Assembly: GCF_057098645.1 (NCBI RefSeq)
Contig: NZ_CM169472.1
Reading direction: 5' to 3' (one strand)
DNA length: 64,000 nucleotides
Shown here: positions 1 through 11,548 of the stretch, in pieces
How positions within the stretch are numbered: the first letter of the stretch is position 1
Layout of the letters: every line of letters begins with the position of its first letter
Made by a program: the position numbers and the translations under genes
Notes under the pieces: model-generated
What the model was told of the DNA's origin: nothing
Seen by the model: the letters and a program-made list of their open reading frames with translations, nothing else
Databases searched by the model: none

Positions 1-527
1 CGGCAAAAGGCACGCAAAACGGCGACAGCGCCGGATGCGTGGTGGTGGCACCGCCAGCCGTGCCGGGTGGTAAGTTCCGCATTCTTGAGCGTCACCAGTG
101 GCGCGGGATGGACTTCCGCGCCCAGGCTGACGCCATCAAAAAACTGACCGAACAGTACAACGTGACCTATATCGGTATCGACTCAACCGGCGTTGGTCAC
201 GGGGTTTACGAGAACGTGAAAGCGTTTTTTCCTGCCGTCCGGGAGTTTGTCTACAACCCCAACGTTAAAAACGCCCTGGTACTCAAGGCCTACGACATTA
301 TCAGCCACCGCCGTCTGGAGTTTGACGCCGGACACACCGACATAGCGCAGTCCTTTATGGCAATACGTCGCGCCACCACCGCCAGTGGCAACCGCCCGAC
401 CTATGAAGCCAGCCGCAGCGAAGAAGCCAGCCACGCCGATCTGGCCTGGGCAACAATGCACGCACTGTTTAACGAACCGCTGCAGGGCGAATCCGCCAAT
501 ACCAGCAATATTGTGGAGATTTTTTGA
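1..527 (+). CDS. Terminase large (ATPase) subunit, P2 gpP-like, C-terminal part (5' end outside window)
   Basis: Frame open from window edge to TGA 525-527, overlapping the next ATG (TGATG). P-then-Q gene order of P2-like phages. Similarity recalled, not searched. Confidence 0.7.
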   Translation, partial: AKGTQNGDSAGCVVVAPPAVPGGKFRILERHQWRGMDFRAQADAIKKLTEQYNVTYIGIDSTGVGHGVYENVKAFFPAVREFVYNPNVKNALVLKAYDIISHRRLEFDAGHTDIAQSFMAIRRATTASGNRPTYEASRSEEASHADLAWATMHALFNEPLQGESANTSNIVEIF

Positions 528-1552
528 TGGGAAAGAGTAAGAAGAACCGCACTGCGGCGACGAAACAGATCCAGCTTAAAAGTCAAACTACAGCCGAAGC
601 ATTCAGCTTCGGCGATCCCGTTCCTGTTCTGGACCGCCGAGAACTGCTGGATTATGTGGAATGCGTACAGATGGACCGCTGGTATGAGCCGCCCGTCAGC
701 TTTGACGGACTGGCGCGCACCTTCCGCGCTGCCGTGCATCATAGTTCCCCGATTGCAGTAAAGTGCAACATTCTGACCAGCACCTACATCCCTCACCCGC
801 TGCTCAGCCAGCAGGCTTTTTCGCGTTTTGTGCAGGACTATCTGGTATTTGGTAACGCCTACCTGGAGAAACGCACGAACCGCTTCGGTGAAGTTATCGC
901 CCTTGAACCTGCCCTGGCAAAATATACCCGACGCGGGTTAGACCTGGATACCTACTGGTTTGTGCAATACGGTATGACCACGCAGCCATATCAGTTCACG
1001 AAAGGCAGCATCTTTCATCTGATGGAACCGGACATCAACCAGGAGATCTACGGCCTGCCCGGTTATCTTTCTGCCATTCCGTCAGCCCTGCTCAACGAGT
1101 CCGCCACGCTGTTCCGCCGAAAGTATTACATTAACGGCAGTCATGCTGGCTTCATCATGTACATGACCGATGCTGCGCAGAACCAGGAGGATGTGAACAA
1201 CCTCCGCAACGCAATGAAAAGCGCCAAAGGTCCAGGCAACTTCCGCAACCTGTTTATGTACTCACCTAACGGCAAAAAGGATGGTCTTCAGATTATCCCG
1301 TTGTCAGAAGTCGCGGCGAAGGATGAATTTCTGAATATCAAAAATGTCAGCCGCGACGACATGATGGCTGCGCACCGTGTACCACCACAAATGATGGGGA
1401 TAATGCCTAATAATGTTGGGGGATTTGGGGATGTGGAGAAAGCCTGCAAAGTATTTGTTAGAAATGAGTTAACAGTATTACAAAAAAAAATACTGGAACT
1501 GAACACTTGGTTAGATGATGATGTAATTAATTTTAATGAGTATATGCTTTGA
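527..1552 (+). CDS. Portal protein, P2 gpQ-like
   Basis: 341-aa ORF translationally coupled to the terminase gene. Resembles the P2/186 Q portal family. Confidence 0.8.
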   Translation: MGKSKKNRTAATKQIQLKSQTTAEAFSFGDPVPVLDRRELLDYVECVQMDRWYEPPVSFDGLARTFRAAVHHSSPIAVKCNILTSTYIPHPLLSQQAFSRFVQDYLVFGNAYLEKRTNRFGEVIALEPALAKYTRRGLDLDTYWFVQYGMTTQPYQFTKGSIFHLMEPDINQEIYGLPGYLSAIPSALLNESATLFRRKYYINGSHAGFIMYMTDAAQNQEDVNNLRNAMKSAKGPGNFRNLFMYSPNGKKDGLQIIPLSEVAAKDEFLNIKNVSRDDMMAAHRVPPQMMGIMPNNVGGFGDVEKACKVFVRNELTVLQKKILELNTWLDDDVINFNEYML

Positions 1553-1554
1553 TG

Positions 1555-1581
1555 AAATAGGGGGCTAACGCCCCTATTTTT
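1555..1581. terminator. Bidirectional intrinsic terminator between convergent portal and cargo genes
   Basis: aaataggggc-taac-gcccctattttt: 10-bp stem flanked by an A-run and a T-run, sitting between two convergent stop codons. Confidence 0.6.
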
Positions 1582-2377
1582 AATCATTTTCTGGTTTGTT
1601 TGAAGTTTCATTTACAGGCTGGATCACATCCTTATTAAAATGGCGCGTTTGTTCGACTTTACCTTTTCTAGAAAGGCCTGCACCTTCTAAAATTGAATCG
1701 ATTTTATCGCCACCATTAGCTAAGAAATGCTTAAAATTTTCCGATGATAACATTTCCATTATAGGCGATGAATGGGTAGCTTCTTCAACAAATCTTAATG
1801 GCGGCTCCTCCAGTCGAGTAAGTGCATTACCAAATAACCTTTGGGTAAAGTCGCTATCAAGTTGGACAGCTTCTCTTCTATATCCCTCATAAGCTTTGGA
1901 TACTGAGGCCTTGAATTCATAATCCTCTGCCAATCTGAATCGCTGACCAATTTGTTTCGTTGCTAACCAAGCAAACCATAATGGTGCTCCAACACTTAAA
2001 ATGGAGAGTAAAAGTTGAATAGCTAACTTTATACCTGATGCGTCAGGGTTTGACAGATATGCTTCGAGAGCATGTAAACGCGTATAACCAACAGCAGCAC
2101 CTGCAACCAAAGCACCTATTAGTCCACATACCCACCAACGTATGCTCCGGTTTAATTTTTCTGCTTTATCTTGAAATGCCCCAGCCAAACCTTTTGAAGT
2201 AGTAGTTCTAAATGCCTCTTCACATTTATTAATATAACCCTGAGCTTCTTCACGGAGAGATTGTAAATAATCTTTTGCATCCTTGCTTGCATTCTGTTTC
2301 AGCGCCAAAATTTCTTGTCTGGCCTCATCTACGATTTTGGAGTTCTCTTCAGTCTCTTTAAGGGTAATGACTCCAAC

Positions 2378-2881
2378 TTATTGATAGTGTTTTATGTTCA
2401 GATAATGCCCGATGACTTTGTCATGCAGCTCCACCGATTTTGAGAACGACAGCGACTTCCGTCCCAGCCGTGCCAGGTGCTGCCTCAGATTCAGGTTATG
2501 CCGCTCAATTCGCTGCGTATATCGCTTGCTGATTACGTGCAGCTTTCCCTTCAGGCGGGATTCATACAGCGGCCAGCCATCCGTCATCCATATCACCACG
2601 TCAAAGGGTGACAGCAGGCTCATAAGACGCCCCAGCGTCGCCATAGTGCGTTCACCGAATACGTGCGCAACAACCGTCTTCCGGAGCCTGTCATACGCGT
2701 AAAACAGCCAGCGCTGGCGCGATTTAGCCCCGACGTATCCCCACTGTTCGTCCATTTCCGCGCAGACGATGACGTCACTGCCCGGCTGTATGCGCGAGGT
2801 TACCGACTGCGGCCTGAGTTTTTTAAATGGCGGAAAATCGTGTTGAGGCCAACGCCCATAATGCGGGCGGTTGCCCGGCAT
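2378..2881 (-). CDS. insB: IS1 InsB reading frame (expressed as InsAB' by frameshifting)
   Basis: 167-aa ORF overlapping the insA 3' end inside the IS1 boundaries. Confidence 0.85.
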
Positions 2882-3075
2882 CCAACGCCATTCATGGCCA
2901 TATCAATGATTTTCTGGTGCGTACCGGGTTGAGAAGCGGTGTAAGTGAACTGCAGTTGCCATGTTTTACGGCAGTGAGAGCAGAGATAGCGCTGATGTCC
3001 GGCGGTGCTTTTGCCGTTACGCACCACCCCGTCAGTAGCTGAACAGGAGGGACAGCTGATAGAAACAGAAGCCAC
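2800..3075 (-). CDS. insA: IS1 InsA
   Basis: 91-aa [25 protein letters not shown]..., recognised as IS1 InsA. Confidence 0.9.
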
Positions 3076-3840
3076 TGGAGCACCTCAAAAACACCATCAT
3101 ACACTAAATCAGTAAGTTGGCAGCATCACCTCTTTAAGCATGCCATTAATATTTCTGCAATGCTCAACTGCGCTATTGTAAACATTTTTAACTTCATCAT
3201 TTGTTTCACGAAGCATTTTTACTGTTGTCGGTAGATTCTCGGCTGCATCATATGCTTCATTTATAGTTTTAATTTTCTCTTCTATATTACCAGTTTCAGC
3301 TGCAATTGCAGATATACCTGAATTATATAATTCTAATCTGCGTAAAATTTGCTTTGGTAATAAATTTCTATCTTTCAGCCTCTCAAATGAAAAAAGGTCA
3401 TTAATCCTATGAGAGATATATAACATTGAAATAACATAAGATGGTATAGCGGTCTGTTGAACTGATGCGTTACCATTGTTTATATGATTAATATTTTGCT
3501 GAGCATGATCCAGAGTGTAAATGAGCGCATCAATTACTGCAATGTCATCTGAAGATGGTACAAATTCCTGCATCTGATTAATTCTATCAGATAACATTTT
3601 TGGTAGTTCTATCAGATCCTCTTTATGTAAAAAAGGAAATGTGTACGGCCCAAGGTTTATAAAATCTTCCACAGGGAATACAAGACCATTAAGTGTTGTA
3701 TGTAAATTATCTAGTTTCTCTTTTAATTCAGTTAGTTTTTCGTTCATTAAAAAAATCCTTTATGACGCTATAGAACTTCCAGAGTAATCCGATAAAGATA
3801 TCATAAGACAATATTTTGGTATAAACACTTATTGCGCGCG

Positions 3841-3859
3841 CTCGTATCCCCGCCACGCC
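3841..3859. other. Candidate P2/186-type cos (cohesive end) sequence
   Basis: Reverse complement reads ggcgtggcggggatacgag. The first 13 nt match my recollection of the 186 cohesive end GGCGTGGCGGGGA. Its position between Q and A is as in P2-like genomes. Confidence 0.5.
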
Positions 3860-3904
3860 TGCCCGCTTTATGTAGTGGTTTTCATGCACCTGCATGATCT
3901 ACGC

Positions 3905-3928
3905 AAAAGCCCGCCAGAACTGGCGGGC
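3905..3928 (-). terminator. Intrinsic terminator downstream of lipoprotein gene
   Basis: gcccgccag/ctggcgggc stem followed by a T-run on the minus strand. Confidence 0.5.
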
Positions 3929-4032
3929 CTTAACACAAAAGATCCTCAAACGATCATGCGATCTCATGCAGCATAGACATGCGCGCTTATGCAGAATGTG
4001 CAAAATCGTAACATACTCAGTAAGCGTGAAAA

Positions 4033-4710
4033 CTAGAACGTGACAGCCTTGTCAAAGCCAGAAATAATTGTATAAGAAATAGACGAGTTATCAGCCTTGT
4101 TCACTTTGAACTTGGCACCTTTGTAAGCGATAACGTCACTTCCCTTAGAATCTACAGAAAAATCTGTTGTAAATGCTGCACGAGCCATATCGTTTGCAAA
4201 TTCACGATAGGTGAACTTCATTACACCGCCTGCATTTCCATTGTATTCGATAGTCTTAACCAATGAGTTACTAACTCGACACAGCCCATCAGGAACACGT
4301 TTGATAGAAATTTCTGATGCAGTATAAGAAGTACCATTTGGCGGTGATATCTCATTTTTTGCAGCATCGTAACTAACATAATCAACATAGTTACCGATTT
4401 GCCCATAGAGATTTTTTAACGCAACAGCTTGAGGGTTATGATAATTGCGGTAAATTCCATTCCCCTCACTGCAATATGTACCAGCAGCGATAGAAGACAA
4501 TGCACCATTAGCCGCACCAAGTTCTAGTACGTCCGTTTTAAATCCAGTAGCAGATGTGATAATGGGATCGCCCATGTAGGCGGTAGCACTTTGCCCAATA
4601 GCAGGCTTCACCACTTCAATAGCAGTGATATTTCGGTTAGAAGCATGTGGCACGCAACCAGTTAGGATTACAGCAAGAGATATTGGTAACGCTACATTAT
4701 TAATTTTCAT
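4033..4710 (-). CDS. Predicted lipoprotein, unknown function (prophage cargo)
   Basis: Start MKINNVALPISLAVILTGC with lipobox LTGC. 225-aa ORF with no family recognised. Confidence 0.65.
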   Translation of the reverse strand: MKINNVALPISLAVILTGCVPHASNRNITAIEVVKPAIGQSATAYMGDPIITSATGFKTDVLELGAANGALSSIAAGTYCSEGNGIYRNYHNPQAVALKNLYGQIGNYVDYVSYDAAKNEISPPNGTSYTASEISIKRVPDGLCRVSNSLVKTIEYNGNAGGVMKFTYREFANDMARAAFTTDFSVDSKGSDVIAYKGAKFKVNKADNSSISYTIISGFDKAVTF

Positions 4711-4823
4711 TTTTAGCCTATTATTCTTTTCTTGACAAAAAACAAGGCGATATCCGATTGACATCGCCTCTCACTCATATGTAACCCTTTTTGATTAGTA
4801 AAAACAAGCGTCTATTGACAAAA

Positions 4824-5057
4824 TCAATGCAGCCAGCTGTCGTCTTCCCACACCTTCTGCATAATTTTCATCACTTGTTTTCTTTCTTCGTCCAGTTGCA
4901 GTCCGGTCAGTTCCACACCGTTAGAGCTACCTTTACGGATACGGATTACCGTTTTGGGATACAGGGGGCGCAGATTGCGGTAAAGCTCGGATTCAAGGGC
5001 GTCCAGGGTAGACTGGCTAATCTTCTGCTCTTTATCGATCATTATTTCAATGCGCAT
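4824..5057 (-). CDS. DinI-like protein (Tum C-terminal-like)
   Basis: MRIEIMIDKEQ...KVWEDDSWLH resembles DinI (MRIEVTI...ETWESADDWF). RBS gaggtg. Downstream of a LexA box. Confidence 0.7.
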   Translation of the reverse strand: MRIEIMIDKEQKISQSTLDALESELYRNLRPLYPKTVIRIRKGSSNGVELTGLQLDEERKQVMKIMQKVWEDDSWLH

Positions 5058-5067
5058 AAAAGTCACC

Positions 5068-5256
5068 TCAGCTGATGACATCCATTGAGCGGTTGTATTC
5101 GTGGCTTCTGATTTTTGCCATGAGTTCATCAGTCAATTCAGAAACCCACTGCAGAGCCAGCCCCTTCTCTTCATCACTACACTCACTAGCCGCTACAAGC
5201 TTAAGAAAAAAATCAATGCGCTGGAGCTTCAAAGACTCCAAAAAATAGTCCTGCAT
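5068..5256 (-). CDS. Small hypothetical protein, first gene of the SOS-box operon
   Basis: 62-aa ORF with strong RBS aggagga, 11 nt upstream of the DinI-like gene. Confidence 0.5.
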   Translation of the reverse strand: MQDYFLESLKLQRIDFFLKLVAASECSDEEKGLALQWVSELTDELMAKIRSHEYNRSMDVIS

Positions 5257-5297
5257 CTTTCCTCCTATGACACCACAAGAAATACTGTATGTATAAC

Positions 5298-5318
5298 CAC
5301 TGTTTATATTTACAGTAT
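5298..5318. promoter_or_regulatory. LexA (SOS) box
   Basis: cACTGTttatatttACAGTat fits CTGT-N8-ACAG. Lies about 45 bp upstream of ATG 5256. Confidence 0.6.
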
Positions 5319-7515
5319 ATAATAATCTTACTGATGTAAAACGTTTTTTTTACGCTTATCAGCTTGATATGCCTGGTATTATTAAGAGCACGAATTGTTA
5401 ACCAGCGTAATTAATACAGGTTCCGCCACTTATCATCTTCCTGCAAACGCTGGTTCCGATAGAAGATACGCAGGCCTGCTCCTGACGGAATACTGCCGCC
5501 GCGAAGGAGTAAATCGACCTCTTTCTCGCTGCCATCAAATCCTCTGGATTTCAGTTCATAGACGAGCTGCTGTCGTTGATGGTCTGTAATTCGCTGTTTG
5601 TAGTCTCTACGCCGTTTCGGTTTCACCAGACGTAACCTTGCAGCCAGTTCCCGGCGCTCCTTTTTGTTCATACTGTGCAGGTAATCGTGCAACTCCTTGT
5701 CATCCATGCGGGTAAAGTCCGTTCTGGGGTCCCCATCAGCTGATTTATCTTTCTCCTGTTGGTTCAAATTTTCAGCAAGGGGACAGTTATTGCCACGAGT
5801 CCAAGGGGCGCAAGCGCCCTGGTCGGCTGCCGCCTCCTGAACGTCAACGGCCTTACGAACCATTTTCCACTTCACTGCATGAGTACAAATCTTGCCCTCT
5901 GCAATGGGTGACCAGATGCCATAAATACGAATACCGTGATCGCCATAGGCGGTCGGCTCTTCGTTAATTTCATAAGCTGTTCTGATAAGGTGATATTTGC
6001 GGGGAACCAGTACGCCGCCCTGCTTCATAATGTAGGTGGCAAAACAACCAGCATCAGCAGCAGCCAGAATGGCATCAAGGCGCGGGTTATCCAGTACCGG
6101 CGCACCTGCTTTTTTGTCACCCTGTTGCCTTGCCGCCTGACCAGCCAGCAATCGCAATTCACGGTACGCCTGACGCCCCGGAATACCAAAGAAGCGAAAT
6201 TGCTGAACACGATGCAGAGACGCCCAGGCATTAACGTATTCAGCGTTATCACGCAGGGATTTACCCGTTTCCTTGCTGATTTCGCCAGCCAGACCACGCC
6301 CATCAATGTTCTTACTGATGTATTTCGCGATGTAGCTTGTCGGCGTTCCTTTTCGCGGGTTAATCAGCTCAGACTTAAAGCGCGGCCCCGTGTTATTGCC
6401 CAGCTCCTCACGGTCTTCACGGATAGCAAACTTACGCAACAATGCAGTAATGGCGCGGCGGTCTTTTTTGCGCATGAAACACAACAGGTGCCAGTGAACT
6501 GTGCCGTCATGATGCGGCTCAGCCACCCGCACGCCATACCAGCGCAACCCGGCTTTGTGCATCGCCTTACGAAATGCAGCAAACATACCGACCAGATAAT
6601 CGCTGCTTTGTCTTACCGTCGCATTTGTCCATGTCGGGTTGGGTCTGCCGTTATTGAGCGTGGAATGGAAACGTGACGGACAGGTAATGGTGTAGAAAAC
6701 GGCGCAGTCACCGCGCATTTCCGCGATAAGCTCCAGACCTTTAACACAGGCCATCATCTCATTGCGACGATGCGCCGGGTTGCTGCTGCTGGCGTTTACC
6801 ACATCTTCCATATCCAGCGCGTCTCCGTCTTCGTTCACCAGTTCATGAGAACGGAAAAACTCCAGTGACTTACGGCGCTGCTCACGTTTATGCATCACGG
6901 CTTCATAGCTGACATAGGGAGATGCTTTTTTGCTGACCAGGCAGACAGCACGCAACTGCTCTTCCCGCCATTCGCAACGCATCTTCCACAATTTCCGATA
7001 CCACCAGTCGGCGCACAGCATACGCGCCAGCGAACCCGGAATGAGTTCATAGGGCACGGGTTTACGGCGGTTTCTTTTCCGACGGAGTTGCTCAAACGCA
7101 GGCGGGATGACATCCAGACGCAGGGTTTCCGCTGCCACCTTTTCCCATGTCTTGCGGATTTCTTCTGGCTTAACGTCATCGGTGGCATACAAATCACCAC
7201 AAGCTGCATCAAGGCACATACTCATATGCGCAGCTACCAAGGTGGACAGGCGTTTCACCTGATCCTGACTCATTTCAGGCAGGATCAGCAGGCCGTCCAG
7301 CCCTTCATGGCTTGCCATAAAGCGAAAAGATGCAGATAGCTGACTGTCGCGTACATGCTCCAGTCGTTCCAGACATGGCTTAATCGTCTCACGTAAATAG
7401 CGGGAATAAGCCTTTGTGCGTATTCCGCTCTATTCGATCACGGATTGGCATCGAAGTCCGATCAGCGATTCGCATCCATTCGATCAACCGGGAACTTAAC
7501 TTTTTCTACCGCTTT

Positions 7516-8271
7516 TTAACGCGTTTTTTCGCTGCTTTCCACTACCGGGGGATTTTTCCTCAGTGACTCTCCCTGAAGGACCACTCGGTGTGAGTTATGT
7601 ACCAGTCTGTCCAGGATGGCATCTGCTGTTGTTGGGTTCTCCATCAGACCATGCCATTTATCTACCGGGAACTGGCTTACCACTATCGTGCTGCTTTGTC
7701 CGTAACGATCCTCTATGAGCTCCAGAAGGTCATTACACTGGGCGTTACTTAACTGTTCCAGCCCCAGATCGTCCAGGATTAGAACCTGTATTTTTTGCAA
7801 CTGTTTCAGATATTTCAGCCAGCTGCCATCAACACGTCCCTGAGCCAGTTGTTCCAGTAATCGCCCGGTTCTACAGTACCGGACGCTGTGTTTCTGTCGA
7901 CATGCCTGTTCGCCCAGCGCATTGGCTATCCAGCTCTTGCCACATCCTGTCGGACCGGTTATCAGCAGGTTTTTCCTGTGGGTTATGTAGTGGCCGTTCA
8001 GCAGTTCTCTCATCTGTTCAGCCCGCAGACCTCTTGAGGCCGGATAGCGCAGCCCTTCCGGTGTTGCCTGGTATTTCAGGCCGGCATTTTTTCTCAACCG
8101 TGCCACACGGCTGTTTTCCCTGCTCAGAAGCTCGTCATCAACCAGCAGCGTCAGCCTTTCCTCGAACGACAGTTCGTCGTAGGTCTGAGGCGTTTCCCGC
8201 TGCCGTATCAGGCTCCCGGCCATCGCCGGGAGTTTCAGTTGGGTCAGTTTGTTTAACAGGTTATCACTCAT
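7516..8271 (-). CDS. istB: IS21-family helper ATPase IstB
   Basis: MSDNLLNKL.. with Walker A GPTGCGKS and Walker B LILDDLG. Confidence 0.9.
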   Translation of the reverse strand: MSDNLLNKLTQLKLPAMAGSLIRQRETPQTYDELSFEERLTLLVDDELLSRENSRVARLRKNAGLKYQATPEGLRYPASRGLRAEQMRELLNGHYITHRKNLLITGPTGCGKSWIANALGEQACRQKHSVRYCRTGRLLEQLAQGRVDGSWLKYLKQLQKIQVLILDDLGLEQLSNAQCNDLLELIEDRYGQSSTIVVSQFPVDKWHGLMENPTTADAILDRLVHNSHRVVLQGESLRKNPPVVESSEKTR

Positions 8272-8287
8272 ACTGTTGTTCCTTCTG

Positions 8288-9823
8288 TCAGTGGTAGTAG
8301 CCCGGACCACGCAGGTTTTCATGCTCTGAAGCATATGCCGGATGTTGTTCGCCCTGGCGGGATAATGGAAGCTCCAGGTTCTCCCGATGGTGACGCAGCA
8401 GATTGTCGATAAAGCGTCTGTCAGGGGCGTTATAGTGCAGGGCAACGTAACAGGCCTTTTCCAGCCGTTCCGGGCCGTATTTTTTCTGAAGTGCCAGCAG
8501 CCCCAGAACTGCACGATAAGCCAGTTCCGGATGGGGTTTTGCCTTCAGCATGGATTCAACCACCCGGCCTGTGGACGGGCCCGTACGTTTTCCCTGCTCG
8601 ATCAGGCGTTCCGGTGTCCATGTCCCGTGCTGCCGGTGGCGCTCTGGCATGTGAAGCGGATTGGTTGTGTGTTTATATTCATGTGTGCTGCGCGGATGTT
8701 GCGCCACACACTGCCCCTTGTGCCAGAGCTGTACCACCGACTGCCCCGCCTTCAGTGACAGACGCTGACCGACCAGTTCGTGTGGAACGGAGTACCAGTG
8801 ACGGGCATATTCAACGTGGTAGTCAGGGCCAACCTTCACAGCTTTGTATTCCGTGTATTCATAAGGTGCCAGAGGCAGCGGAGAGAGTGCTGGCGCATCC
8901 AGTATGCGGAAGCGTTCTGCACGGGTTTGATTGCCGTACCCCTTCATTGGCCGGTTATTCATGTCTGTCAGTAACTCCCTAAGGCGCGCATTCAGCGCCC
9001 TGAGCGTGTGGAAGGTTTCATTACGGATGCGGGCAAGAAGCCATCGTTCAACGATGAGGACGCCGTTTTCTGCTTTTGGTTTATCTTTAGGTTTGCGTGG
9101 TCGGGCCGGGATGATAACCGTGCCATAGTGCTCAGCCAGTGCCTGATAACTGTCGTTGATGACAGGCTCATATCGATCGGCCTTTTTCACTGCGCTTCTG
9201 AGGTTATCGGGGATGAGCAGCTTCGGTACGCCGCCCAGGAAGGTCAGGCAACGGCTGTGGGCATTTAACCATGACATCATGTCCTGACCTTCGCACGCTT
9301 CAACGTAGGTATAGTTGGACGCCCCCATTACGGCCACGAAGATTGCCACGCGGCGTATCTCACCGGTGTCCGGATTAATAACAGGAACCGTAGGACCACA
9401 GAAGTCGATAAAAAGCTTTTCGCCGGCACGATGCTCCTGGCGCATGGAGAGACGTCGCGTTTTTTTCCACTCCCGGTAGCAACGGCAGAAGTGCGAGTAT
9501 CCCATCGCTTTGTTACCCGCCTGTGCCTTGTATTCCATCCACAACAGTTGCCGCGTCACACCTGGTTTTCTCATTTCCGTATCGAAGTACAACATGTCAG
9601 GCATTACAAGCTCTGATGCAAAGGTGTCTTTGGGCGGAAAAATGAGTTTCTCCAGCGTGTCATGGGATATATCAGCAGGTAATGGCCATGACAGAGAAGA
9701 GGCTTTGAAGCGGGCAAGAACCTCAAAAACGGTTGAGGCGCTGATGTGTAACGTCAGTCCGATACAACGGTTAGTCAGCTTCTTGTCGAACTTGAGCTGA
9801 AGGATCTTAAAACAGGTTTCCAT
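8288..9823 (-). CDS. istA: IS21-family transposase IstA
   Basis: Long ORF with METCFKILQLK.. start and DDE-type IstA-like sequence. Start codon choice uncertain. Confidence 0.85.
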   Translation of the reverse strand: METCFKILQLKFDKKLTNRCIGLTLHISASTVFEVLARFKASSLSWPLPADISHDTLEKLIFPPKDTFASELVMPDMLYFDTEMRKPGVTRQLLWMEYKAQAGNKAMGYSHFCRCYREWKKTRRLSMRQEHRAGEKLFIDFCGPTVPVINPDTGEIRRVAIFVAVMGASNYTYVEACEGQDMMSWLNAHSRCLTFLGGVPKLLIPDNLRSAVKKADRYEPVINDSYQALAEHYGTVIIPARPRKPKDKPKAENGVLIVERWLLARIRNETFHTLRALNARLRELLTDMNNRPMKGYGNQTRAERFRILDAPALSPLPLAPYEYTEYKAVKVGPDYHVEYARHWYSVPHELVGQRLSLKAGQSVVQLWHKGQCVAQHPRSTHEYKHTTNPLHMPERHRQHGTWTPERLIEQGKRTGPSTGRVVESMLKAKPHPELAYRAVLGLLALQKKYGPERLEKACYVALHYNAPDRRFIDNLLRHHRENLELPLSRQGEQHPAYASEHENLRGPGYYH

Positions 9824-10466
9824 AGTGCTCCTGGATTTTCTCTTTCTGGACATTGACGTCTCCACTGGTTTAAACACGGCAATGGAGACTGTGGTGAAAA
9901 GAGTTAATTCCCGGAGTGACTGGCAGGATGCCAATCAATGATCGGAAGCATGCCAAATCGTGATCGATTGTGATGCCAAACTGTGATCGGAGATGGATGC
10001 CAAATCATGATCGATTCGAATGCCAAACTGCGATCGATTCAGATGCCATTTTGCACCTTTGGCCTGCCCAGGCTGCTGAAGTATTCAATACGTTGCATCA
10101 GCGGCTTGCTGATATGGGAAGGCTGGGCGTTGACGTCCGCCAGAATGACCATGTCTGAATTAAAACGCTGCTGCTCATGCGCCAGCTTTGCCCGGCTAAT
10201 GAGCTTATCCTGCTCCATTTCGCGCTGGACAGGATCACGTGATTCATTAAAGAAATAACGCTCCCAGACCTGATCACTCAGTGCCTCGCGGCGCAACTGT
10301 TCCTGCTCGTTATCGGCAGCGTACAGAGTGATCAGGTTTGAAAGCGTAGAAACCGGCGCAACTTCCGCCGGGTCCAGATAAGGGTTAATGGCCTTTTTCG
10401 GGCTGTTCCATGAGAACGCTGCGGCAGCCTCGTTAAAGCCGCAGCAGTTGTTCATATCGGCATGAC

Positions 10467-11324
10467 TCATGCACGTACTCCGTACACGGCAGAACTATCC
10501 ACGCCACGCGAATAATCAAATCCCATCCAGCAGCGCGGCCCGGAAACAGCAATGATTTCTGTTGCTGATTTACCCTCGCCAGCTGCCACACCGATGCTGC
10601 GTTTTACCTTGATATAGTGGTGAGTAAAATTGCGATACAGCGAACGGATCAGGGATGTGTCACTGTTAGAAACAATGACCGGATGTCCTTCTGATGACCG
10701 ATGTTCAAGAACGGATGCCAGGTGATACTGGTCATCTTCAGTGAAACCATCAGTGTGATAGCCGGAAAACGTACCGTCATACGGCGGATCGCAATACACC
10801 ACATCTCCCGCCTTCAACATCGCCAGCGTTTCATCAAAGCTGGCGCAGATAAACGTTGCTCGCTGGGCCTTTTCTGCAAATGCGCGAATTTCTTTTTCAG
10901 GGAAATACGGATTTTTATAATTACCGTAGGGAATGTTGAAATGCCCGCTCTTGTTATAGCGACATAAACCACGGTAACCGTGACGATTGAGATACAGGAA
11001 ATATACCGCTTTCATGAAATCAGTAATTTCAGTTGAGTAATTAAACTCCTGCCTTATGTTGTAATAAGCCACCTCCCTGTTTGCGATCTCAAATAAAACT
11101 CTGGCGCGAGATATAAACGATTCACAATCAGCGGCAACCTTTTTATAGAGGTTGATTAAATCAGGATTAATATCCGCAACCAGATAGCTGGGATAATCCG
11201 TCTCCATCATCACAGCACAGGACCCCGCGAAAGGTTCAACCAGTCGCGGGCCAGCAGGAAGATGTTTTTTCAGTTCGGACATAATGGCGGTTTTATTTCC
11301 CGCCCATTTCAGGATGGTGCTCAT
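10467..11324 (-). CDS. DNA adenine methyltransferase (Dam family)
   Basis: [11 protein letters not shown].., FAGS and DPPY motifs. ATGA overlaps with both neighbouring genes. Confidence 0.85.
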
Positions 11325-11548
11325 ACAACACCTCCGTTGTAATGTTTGCCTTTCAGCTCTGCGATTTCCTGACAGGTAATGCAAAGCTGCACACCCGGAA
11401 TGGCGCGGCGGCGTGCTGGCGGAATTGGCGCTTCACATTCAATACAAAGCACGCGAGACACGCCCGGTGTTTTGGCACGGGCAGCACGGATATGGCGCTG
11501 GCGTTCTTCTTCAACGCGCTGCTGTACGAGATCCATTGCATCAGCCAT
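11321..11548 (-). CDS. TraR/DksA-type zinc-finger protein
   Basis: CIECEAPIP..17 aa..CITCQ four-cysteine motif. 75 aa. Confidence 0.7.
   Translation of the reverse strand: MADAMDLVQQRVEEERQRHIRAARAKTPGVSRVLCIECEAPIPPARRRAIPGVQLCITCQEIAELKGKHYNGGVV

Follow-up and report, generated by a model that had tools for sequence, protein, structure and literature searches.

Two cassettes around the cos site of a P2/186-type prophage: a candidate membrane-acting anti-phage protein and an SOS-controlled lipoprotein

The left part of the window, a stretch of 64,000 nucleotides of contig NZ_CM169472.1 (NCBI RefSeq assembly GCF_057098645.1), is a P2/186-type prophage (Fels-2/186-like, Peduoviridae), read across its packaging site. 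On either side of this site, cos, lies accessory cargo: towards the portal gene Q, a gene for a predicted membrane protein of 463 amino acids, here called ORF463 (open reading frame of 463 codons) and interrupted by the insertion sequence IS1; towards the replication gene A, a gene for a lipoprotein of 225 amino acids. Comparison with related genomes indicates that the island is made up of two independently exchanged cassettes with cos between them. Cassette 1 occupies the interval between cos and Q (about 1380-3833) and holds a single gene, ORF463; cassette 2 occupies the interval between A and cos (3834 to about 4810) and holds the lipoprotein gene. Our best explanation of the whole, which we put forward as somewhat short of probable, is a two-cassette hotspot in which ORF463 is an inferred single-protein anti-phage system and the lipoprotein acts in the envelope at prophage induction.

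In P2-like phages, the gpA-gpQ region beside cos has been described as a hotspot for anti-phage systems (Rousset et al. 2022, PMC9122126). Four new systems were reported from it by Vassallo et al. 2022 (PMC9519451), and non-defence cargo is also known from it, for example partition systems and a cytolethal distending toxin (PMC9122126). The island as such is therefore not new; its division into two cassettes is a new detail, and the value of the region lies in what fills it. An initial annotation of the window had recognised the cos-proximal accessory hotspot of P2-like phages, with cargo on both sides of cos, and our results agree with this. They also reproduce the order it proposed, namely Q, bidirectional terminator, IS1-split reading frame, cos, terminator, lipoprotein gene, DinI/Tum-like pair, LexA box and A, with every element at the position it had given or a few bases away (coordinates in Table 1). 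The cargo had further been called AT-rich, and the cargo genes do have GC contents of 32-43%, against 51-59% for the phage backbone.

The cos site and the borders of the cassettes

The reverse complement of positions 3841-3859 is GGCGTGGCGGGGATACGAG, which is of the P2/186 cohesive-end type GGCGnGGCGGGGAnnnnnn. Its positions 1-13 match the cos of phage 186 at 13 of 13 nucleotides, and the same 19-mer is present in Fels-2 and in the prophage of E. coli HS. Alignment with the annotated ends of P2 and 186 extends into both flanks, over about 100 nucleotides on the right-end side and about 7-15 nucleotides on the left-end side. Judged by its sequence, by these flanks and by its place between Q and the A-side accessory genes, what had been noted as a cos-like sequence appears to be a genuine P2/186-type cos.

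The border of cassette 1 at cos is sharp. A 26-mer, composed of the 19-nucleotide cohesive end and CGCGCGC, is identical in the window, in five loci of E. coli/Enterobacter type (L007-L011, with a 65%-identical allele) and in Fels-2, and from the very next base onwards the sequences of all of these are unrelated (3833/3834 in the window; 5898+26 in L007; 4352+26 in L095). Two Pantoea loci break in the same way, with one nucleotide changed in the 26-mer. The cargo gene thus placed begins about 90-110 nucleotides from the left end of the packaged DNA and reads inwards.

At the other end, the initial annotation had taken the stop codon of Q as the edge of the variable region; this has to be corrected, as the edge is within Q. 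In the last three 60-nucleotide bins of the gene, identity to relatives is 53-58%, against 82-98% upstream, and the GC content is 25-35%. From this profile, the Q-side junction is placed at about 1380-1400, and the last 150-170 nucleotides or so of the gene (about 1380-1552) appear to be mosaic, AT-rich and exchangeable. With one junction 26 nucleotides into cos and the other within Q, each cassette carries its own set of about 50 C-terminal Q codons, a terminator and a leader. Many E. coli genomes share 99% identity with the window over 3834-5400, yet differ from it beyond the left end of that interval; the two slots therefore undergo recombination independently of each other. The junction map explains how cassettes can be swapped without harm to packaging, and it provides exact anchors for mining the cos-Q slot.

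The contents of the Q-cos and cos-A intervals were surveyed in relatives, as the initial annotation had proposed, and they do vary: ORF463 or a 454-residue counterpart, AIPR (abortive infection phage resistance), retron St85, DUF8087, the lipoprotein, or nothing. The cos-Q slot of Fels-2 is taken by STM2723.1, which Pfam identifies as AIPR (9e-43). Klebsiella phage 4LV2017 has the reverse transcriptase and effector of retron St85 there, and other Klebsiella phages have AIPR or 'Abi' genes. Fels-2 and the Klebsiella phages with AIPR or the retron carry the same lipoprotein gene (99-100% amino-acid identity). As the same junctions enclose AIPR or a retron in relatives, ORF463 is an allelic alternative to recognised defence genes. 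This allelism is the strongest argument for a defence role of ORF463, albeit a circumstantial one.

The ORF463 gene and the predicted structure of its product

The element that interrupts ORF463 has the features of IS1: a length of 768 bp, terminal inverted repeats, the insA and insB genes and a target duplication in the 8-9 bp range, in this case the 8 bp TCTTTAAG at 2355-2362 and 3131-3138. Deletion of 776 bp (the 768 bp of the element plus one 8-bp duplication) rebuilds a single reading frame of 463 codons on the minus strand, from 3747 to 1580. The rebuilt protein is 100% identical to intact E. coli alleles, and the DNA is 99.8-100% identical to ECHS_RS04510 (protein WP_001003256.1), the corresponding gene of the E. 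coli HS prophage. IS1 breaks the frame after about codon 203-206, within the stalk described below, so what remains in the window is an N-terminal fragment without the membrane module.

Hydropathy analysis of ORF463 reveals two transmembrane helices, 277-299 and 313-337, which have positively charged residues at both sides and are joined by a short acidic loop; this charge distribution suggests that both termini are cytoplasmic. The AlphaFold model has a mean pLDDT (predicted local distance difference test) of 70.8. It contains a confidently modelled N-terminal four-helix bundle (residues 1 to about 125), followed by a helical linker that is less certain. A very long helix, 175-306, then enters the first transmembrane segment, and a return helix, 313-369, contains the second. 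ORF463 is thus predicted to consist of a cytoplasmic N-terminal four-helix bundle, a stalk of about 100 residues that continues directly as a membrane hairpin of two helices, and, after the membrane, a segment that is again cytoplasmic. The helical N-terminal half, long stalk and two-helix hairpin predicted in the initial annotation are borne out by hydropathy and by the model.

Distribution and conservation of the ORF463 family

Neither ORF463 nor the lipoprotein could be placed in a family by the initial annotation, and profile searches lead to the same result: Pfam, NCBIfam and PADLOC are negative for both, and the PHROGs families that contain them are of no assigned function. For ORF463, this family is phrog_34659. 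Searches of ORF463 against Pfam, NCBIfam, PADLOC 2.0 and, as profile searches, Protein Data Bank (PDB) sequences returned no named family; the PDB-sequence search found coiled coils only, weak matches such as ATG17 and ATP-synt_B fall on the coiled coil, and family scans of 31 diverse relatives gave matches of coiled-coil type only.

The family itself is large. It comprises 1,722 clusters (at 50% identity) at E<=1e-3 and 481 at E<=1e-30, and nearly all members have 400-470 residues. In a set with one genome each of 185,579 species, relatives were found at 247 places, spread over Gamma-, Beta- and Alphaproteobacteria, Bacteroidota, Acidobacteriota, Leptospira (Spirochaetota), Verrucomicrobiota, Nitrospirota and others.

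Conservation is distributed very unevenly along the protein. The N-terminal bundle and stalk have 44-45% identity within Enterobacterales and 21-24% across phyla, while the cytoplasmic segments before the first (243-276) and after the second transmembrane helix (338-413) have 86-87% and 51-62%, respectively. Conservation thus peaks in the juxtamembrane cytoplasmic segments and not in the transmembrane helices. The conserved segments contain the motifs CEEAFRTTTSKGLAGAF and GAPLWFAWLATKQIGQRFRLAEDYxFKASVxKAYEGY, and Glu349, Asp350 and Tyr351 make up an invariant motif after the second transmembrane helix. A further cross-phylum motif, KIxxINxAxxAAExLPxxLxxL, lies amid the variable N-terminal half, at residues 158-179 (window positions of about 3211-3276, minus strand); in it, Ile162, Ala165, Leu172, Pro173 and Leu179 are invariant or nearly so, and it overlaps a low-confidence helix break in the model (170-173, pLDDT<50).

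In Enterobacterales, the ORF463 gene is always in the cos-Q slot of P2/186-like prophages, its partner on the A side being the lipoprotein gene, a DUF8087 gene or none. It stays intact in prophage remnants in which the structural genes, namely those for portal, terminase and all of the tail, are lost or truncated (L009 and L012-L014). In L009 (E. coli GCA_028502105.1), everything from Q to ogr is deleted; in the Serratia remnant represented by L012-L014, the A, portal and terminase genes are truncated; in both, the ORF463-family gene is intact. The two remnants adjoin the same host genes, coding for an Asp-Al_Ex transporter, ybjM and grxA.

Across 76 loci, the ORF463 family has no conserved neighbour or partner gene. 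Elsewhere, homologues are present in a non-P2 prophage of Delftia, after the lysozyme gene, in Providencia phage PSTCR8lys and, in Dyadobacter, in an island shared with an integrase gene, an IS21 element and the gene for a SIR2 protein; one adjoins BrnT/BrnA and another an integrated inovirus and a DUF2726 gene. Among 139 larger neighbours at about 40 distant loci, the commonest Pfam domains are phage integrase (7), resolvase (3) and rve (3), and there are several transposases. Mrr_cat and NACHT-associated restriction endonuclease domains are also present, and strong single PADLOC matches are to AbiEii, Old, PD-T4-2, NsnA, type IV restriction endonuclease, DrmD, AriA, SduA, GajA and PDC-S15. 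Taken together, the family behaves like a mobile accessory module of one gene with a patchy distribution; modules of this kind are often antiviral, and ORF463 is a candidate for such a role.

Possible function of ORF463

As a best guess, and a tentative one, ORF463 may be a membrane-acting defence protein. This reading is drawn from its allelic position, its mobility and its conservation pattern. The variable N-terminal half would sense some sign of infection, whereupon the nearly invariant hairpin, with its juxtamembrane segments, would either perturb the membrane, in the manner of abortive infection, or block a membrane step of infection. In its broadest form the proposal is a more speculative one: the ORF463 family might be a new, widespread single-protein anti-phage system, with a fast-evolving four-helix-bundle sensor, a coiled-coil stalk and a near-invariant two-helix module that arrests or kills the infected cell, and the SOS-induced lipoprotein might represent a new class of envelope exclusion protein.

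A number of observations weigh against a defence role. A literature search by accession, locus tag and PHROG identifier found no anti-phage or exclusion phenotype on record for either protein. PADLOC 2.0 does not recognise ORF463, its weak matches to JetC (the top match in PADLOC-DB 2.0, E=5.8e-4, over the coiled coil), LmuB and ZorA being coiled-coil noise. The family was found in just one of 50,697 phage genome records, so that it is nearly absent from sequenced phages, and its rarity extends to E. coli, where 13 of 5,426 complete genomes carry it. A promoter scan of the 86-nucleotide leader gave no convincing sigma-70 promoter. The enrichment in the neighbourhoods is qualitative, the counts standing without a background set, and several distant homologues are solitary among housekeeping genes (Aeromonas fdhD and Pseudomonas nrd loci). 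As to published screens, the ORF463 accession was not found in a part of the supplementary tables of Rousset et al. 2022, and neither accession was found in the DefensePredictor tables.

These solitary homologues and the lack of a defence-profile match would also fit a mobile membrane 'moron' with a non-antiviral task, such as envelope-stress tolerance, membrane remodelling or the anchoring or sequestering of a host factor, at a site that merely tolerates insertions. Non-defence cargo is known from the same hotspot (PMC9122126), and the conservation next to the membrane could equally reflect a binding site for a conserved host component. We nevertheless think such a role unlikely: a very sparse and patchy family is a poor fit to general physiology, the alleles at identical junctions are defence genes, the family recurs beside integrases, insertion sequences, toxin-antitoxin and defence genes, and a fast-diverging N-terminal half joined to a frozen C-terminal half is typical of conflict genes.

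ORF463 is a predicted bitopic protein of the inner membrane, and its gene, behind a short leader of its own, lies at the very left end of the packaged DNA. This could also mean that it serves the phage that carries it, either through superinfection exclusion at the inner membrane, directed against DNA entry of related phages (Imm/SieA-like), or as a modulator of lysis timing. Its homologues in the Delftia prophage and the Providencia phage, which adjoin lysis or tail genes in these other phage types, point the same way. A part in the core cycle is opposed by the absence of ORF463 from most P2/186-like phages and its replaceability by AIPR or a retron; moreover, many homologues are outside prophages and the gene is kept where structural genes have been deleted. 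A phage-serving role therefore strikes us as improbable. Dispensability and replacement in close relatives also led us to reject a morphogenesis or lysis function, for ORF463 and for the lipoprotein alike.

The defence reading concerns the family; the copy in the window is another matter. Two insertions, of IS1 into ORF463 and of an IS21-family element into gene A, make the prophage defective, and the ORF463 copy is a pseudogene; with gene and prophage inactivated, the biological relevance of this particular copy is low. It is in fact rather probable that the island is without function in this genome, a decaying remnant with both genes as neutral passengers, and the finding that the IS1-split allele occurs in none of 5,426 complete E. 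coli genomes fits this. Such an account holds for the window copy only, since intact alleles that are 100% identical circulate, and the lipoprotein operon is undamaged here.

The lipoprotein gene and its SOS operon

The signal peptide of the lipoprotein, MKINNVALPISLAVILTG, is followed by the lipobox cysteine and by a valine at +2. Among 22 homologues, Gly18 and Cys19 are invariant and two other cysteines are conserved. The protein is thus predicted to be an outer-membrane lipoprotein, with a likely disulphide. Its family is small, with 27 clusters in Enterobacterales; scans of Pfam, NCBIfam, PADLOC and PHROGs assign it to no named family, and it has no PDB-sequence profile match. More than 20 records of Klebsiella phages encode a lipoprotein of the same amino-acid sequence (100% identity), and that of Fels-2 is 99% identical; the surrounding backbone has just 93-96% DNA identity. 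Its accession, WP_000700647, is present in Table S5A of Rousset et al. 2022, with different partners (PMC9122126). Distant homologues (24-27% identity, with an LVGC lipobox) are encoded amid the tail genes of Acinetobacter Vieuvirus and Moraxella Mcat28 siphophages (L109 3462-4142; L110 3474-4151), one of them beside a DUF4258/HTH pair and directly upstream of the tape-measure gene.

The initial annotation had given both cargo genes their own terminators. Terminators were indeed found, at 1554-1580 and 3905-3930, but the lipoprotein gene is not autonomous. There is strong support for its being the distal gene of a LexA-controlled orf62-dinI/tum operon, behind a partial terminator, which implies that it is transcribed by read-through after DNA damage. 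The LexA box is CTGTTTATATTTACAG. The DinI/Tum-like product has 41% identity to residues 71-145, the C-terminal half, of 186 Tum; the 62-residue product of orf62, considered as a counterpart of the N-terminal half of Tum, has no similarity to it and this assignment was rejected. In the RefSeq record of Klebsiella phage 4LV2017 (L002 4346-4534; NC_047818, HOR69_gp09), the lipoprotein gene is called over its last 62 codons only, and the DinI-like and 62-residue genes are omitted; the operon is thus under-annotated in reference phages.

Expression data are available for the Fels-2 operon. When Salmonella TA100 (Fels-2+) was exposed to the mutagen MX, an array study found STM2726-STM2727-STM2728 among the most induced genes (14.8- to 2.6-fold, all p<0.05), in the same table in which umuDC was induced 8.6-14.3-fold (PMC2225428). 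STM2726 is the 99%-identical orthologue of the lipoprotein, and the induction was thus seen in Fels-2 and not in the strain of the window. It was the sole relevant match in our search of the literature by accession, locus tag and PHROG identifier, and it deals with expression, not with phage resistance. The lipoprotein is best seen as an SOS-induced envelope protein made at prophage induction, and not as a constitutive conversion gene. Overall, the observation behind the initial annotation is confirmed and its interpretation is partly supported; the lipoprotein should be re-read as a member of the SOS operon.

Given the LexA box, the partial terminator and the induction of the Fels-2 operon by DNA damage, any exclusion role of the lipoprotein would be exerted at induction and not in the resting lysogen. 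Our preferred guess, a doubtful one made by analogy, is envelope-level exclusion or receptor masking at that moment: the lipoprotein would, for example, hide or modify a receptor on the cell surface and so keep the induced cell, or its debris, from taking up phage. The corresponding place in phage 186 is occupied by orf97, for which the GenBank record notes 'expression from plasmid blocks 186 infection'. The lipoprotein is not an orf97 homologue, a possibility rejected after BLASTP (E=4.7); only position and size agree.

Three points tell against exclusion. SOS-dependent expression speaks against classical exclusion in a resting lysogen. P2/186-type phages adsorb to lipopolysaccharide, so that receptor masking against their own kind by a lipoprotein is not obvious. 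Finally, the lipoprotein has no similarity, in sequence or fold, to anything characterised. An equally doubtful alternative is that it is a host-fitness or virulence factor, with a role in serum resistance (like Bor or TraT) or adhesion, or an accessory factor in lysis or release. This would suit a predicted outer-membrane lipoprotein with a likely disulphide that is expressed with the SOS operon at induction, i.e., at the time of lysis, and that has distant homologues amid siphophage tail genes. It fits less well with the lack of similarity to spanins or Bor in PHROGs and Pfam, with the position held by an infection blocker in 186, and with the fact that the lipoprotein is dispensable, being absent from 186, P2 and many relatives, in which the slot is empty or contains DUF8087.

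Features of the prophage part of the window

The features discussed above are collected in Table 1, together with the neighbouring backbone genes. Gene A is interrupted by the IS21-family element, and its 5' part picks up again near 10039-10470. A gene for a D12-class, Dam-type DNA adenine methyltransferase (10467-11384, minus strand) lies just upstream of gene A, and the same arrangement is present in E. coli HS and Fels-2.

Table 1. Coordinates of features around cos in the window, with the evidence for each
Feature	Position	Strand	Evidence or remark
Terminase ATPase gene P, 3' end	39-527	+	Pfam Terminase_6C, 2.5e-43
Portal gene Q	524-1552	+	Pfam Phage_portal
Bidirectional intrinsic terminator, common to the convergent Q and ORF463	1554-1580	both strands	Hairpin in terminator scan
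ORF463, distal part (predicted stalk end, pre-transmembrane motif, transmembrane helices 277-299 and 313-337, conserved post-transmembrane segment, tail)	1580-2362	-	Rebuilt reading frame; regional conservation
IS1, 768 bp (insA 2800-3075, insB 2378-2881)	2363-3130	-	Pfam DDE_Tnp_IS1, HTH_Tnp_IS1, Zn_ribbon_InsA
ORF463, proximal part (predicted N-terminal four-helix bundle, stalk start; ATG at 3747)	3131-3747	-	Rebuilt reading frame
Cassette-specific 86-nucleotide leader of ORF463 (-10-like TATGAT 3805-3800, AAGGA ribosome-binding site)	3748-3833	-	Relatives diverge from 3833 downwards
cos (19-nucleotide cohesive end 3841-3859 and CGCGCGC)	3834-3859	-	Alignment with P2 and 186 ends
Conserved right-end cos flank, with operon terminator hairpin 3905-3930 (analogue of 186 t95b)	3860-3960	-	Alignment with 186 and P2 right ends; 186 annotation
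Lipoprotein gene, 225 amino acids (lipobox LTGC, no Asp at +2, two further conserved Cys)	4033-4710	-	phrog_1353 match; counterpart of Fels-2 STM2726
Hairpin terminator between DinI-like and lipoprotein genes (positional analogue of 186 partial terminator t95a)	4744-4770	-	Terminator scan; 186 annotation
DinI/Tum-like gene	4824-5129 (in E. coli HS annotated with 77 amino acids, 4824-5057)	-	Pfam DinI, 1.2e-22
62-amino-acid gene (orf62), first in operon	5068-5256	-	PHROGs, phrog_698
LexA box, CTGT-N8-ACAG	5300-5315	.	44 nucleotides upstream of orf62; position matches LexA site of 186 p95
Replication gene A, 3' two-thirds	5411-7416	-	Pfam Phage_GPA, 1e-127; match to HS A gene stops at about 7416
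IS21-family element inside gene A (istB 7516-8514, istA 8288-9934)	7417 to about 10000	-	IstB_IS21, 2e-60; rve and Mu-transpos_C_2

Significance

The proportion of P2-like prophages considered 'defence-less' has been put at 19% (PMC13586616); unnamed cargo genes, ORF463 among them, explain a part of this group. If it is antiviral, it adds a single-gene membrane system and gives a function to a family that is absent from Pfam and spans many phyla. A variable N-terminal half on a frozen membrane module would be a simple design for swapping specificity, and the family is large, unnamed and easy to test. With the lipoprotein, an envelope protein becomes connected with the SOS operon of Fels-2/186-type phages.

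Comparison with known systems

The N-terminal bundle of ORF463 was compared with the coiled-coil domain of plant nucleotide-binding leucine-rich repeat receptors (Rx, 4m70) and with the four-helix bundle of MLKL (4btf, 6ux8). Identity amounts to 6-13%, and similar scores are reached by hundreds of unrelated helical bundles; in contrast to these bundle 'executioners', the bundle of ORF463 is its variable and not its conserved part, so we take the resemblance as a lead only. Similar in general design are membrane-acting abortive-infection effectors, among them RexB, the two-transmembrane-helix effectors of retrons and the transmembrane effectors of CBASS and Pycsar. Like these, ORF463 would combine a cytoplasmic part for sensing with a small transmembrane module that presumably carries out the killing or arrest. 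It differs from them in having no profile match, in that sensor and effector would share one polypeptide with a long coiled-coil stalk, and in having its peak of conservation in the juxtamembrane cytoplasmic segments instead of the transmembrane helices.

For the lipoprotein, the nearest functional models are Llp of phage T5 and Cor of phages phi80 and N15, outer-membrane lipoproteins of lytic development that mask the receptor and so prevent superinfection and the loss of progeny on debris. Their mode of action is the one proposed here, by analogy, for the lipoprotein. They are much smaller, at about 60-80 residues against 225, and the lipoprotein matches no PHROG family annotated as exclusion.

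In genetic organization, the operon resembles the SOS operon p95-tum-orf97 of phage 186 (NC_001317 annotation; Brumby et al. 1996, cited from PMC5322425). Each has a LexA box ahead of a Tum/DinI-like gene; a partial terminator leads to a distal gene of about 225-243 codons, and between this gene and cos lies a final terminator. The DNA-damage induction of the Fels-2 operon fits this plan. The differences are in the genes themselves: the lipoprotein is not homologous to orf97, orf62 is dissimilar to the N-terminal half of Tum, and the DinI-like part forms a separate gene of 77 codons.

The island as a whole shares with the P2 hotspot its location between A and Q at cos, its AT-rich variable cargo and the presence of known defence genes in close relatives. 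In P2, where Q ends 168 nucleotides from cos, old and tin are on the A side, whereas the main slot here, in Fels-2 and in the Klebsiella phages is on the Q side; the ORF463 family is also outside the recognised systems. Direct parallels are the cassettes with STM2723.1 in Fels-2 and with retron St85 in 4LV2017. Their AIPR and retron products are cytoplasmic, with known domains, and have no sequence relation to ORF463, which is a predicted membrane protein without a known domain. Their cassettes occupy exactly the same slot as ORF463 does, in the same orientation (from cos towards Q), in a backbone that is 93-96% identical and with the same lipoprotein gene alongside.

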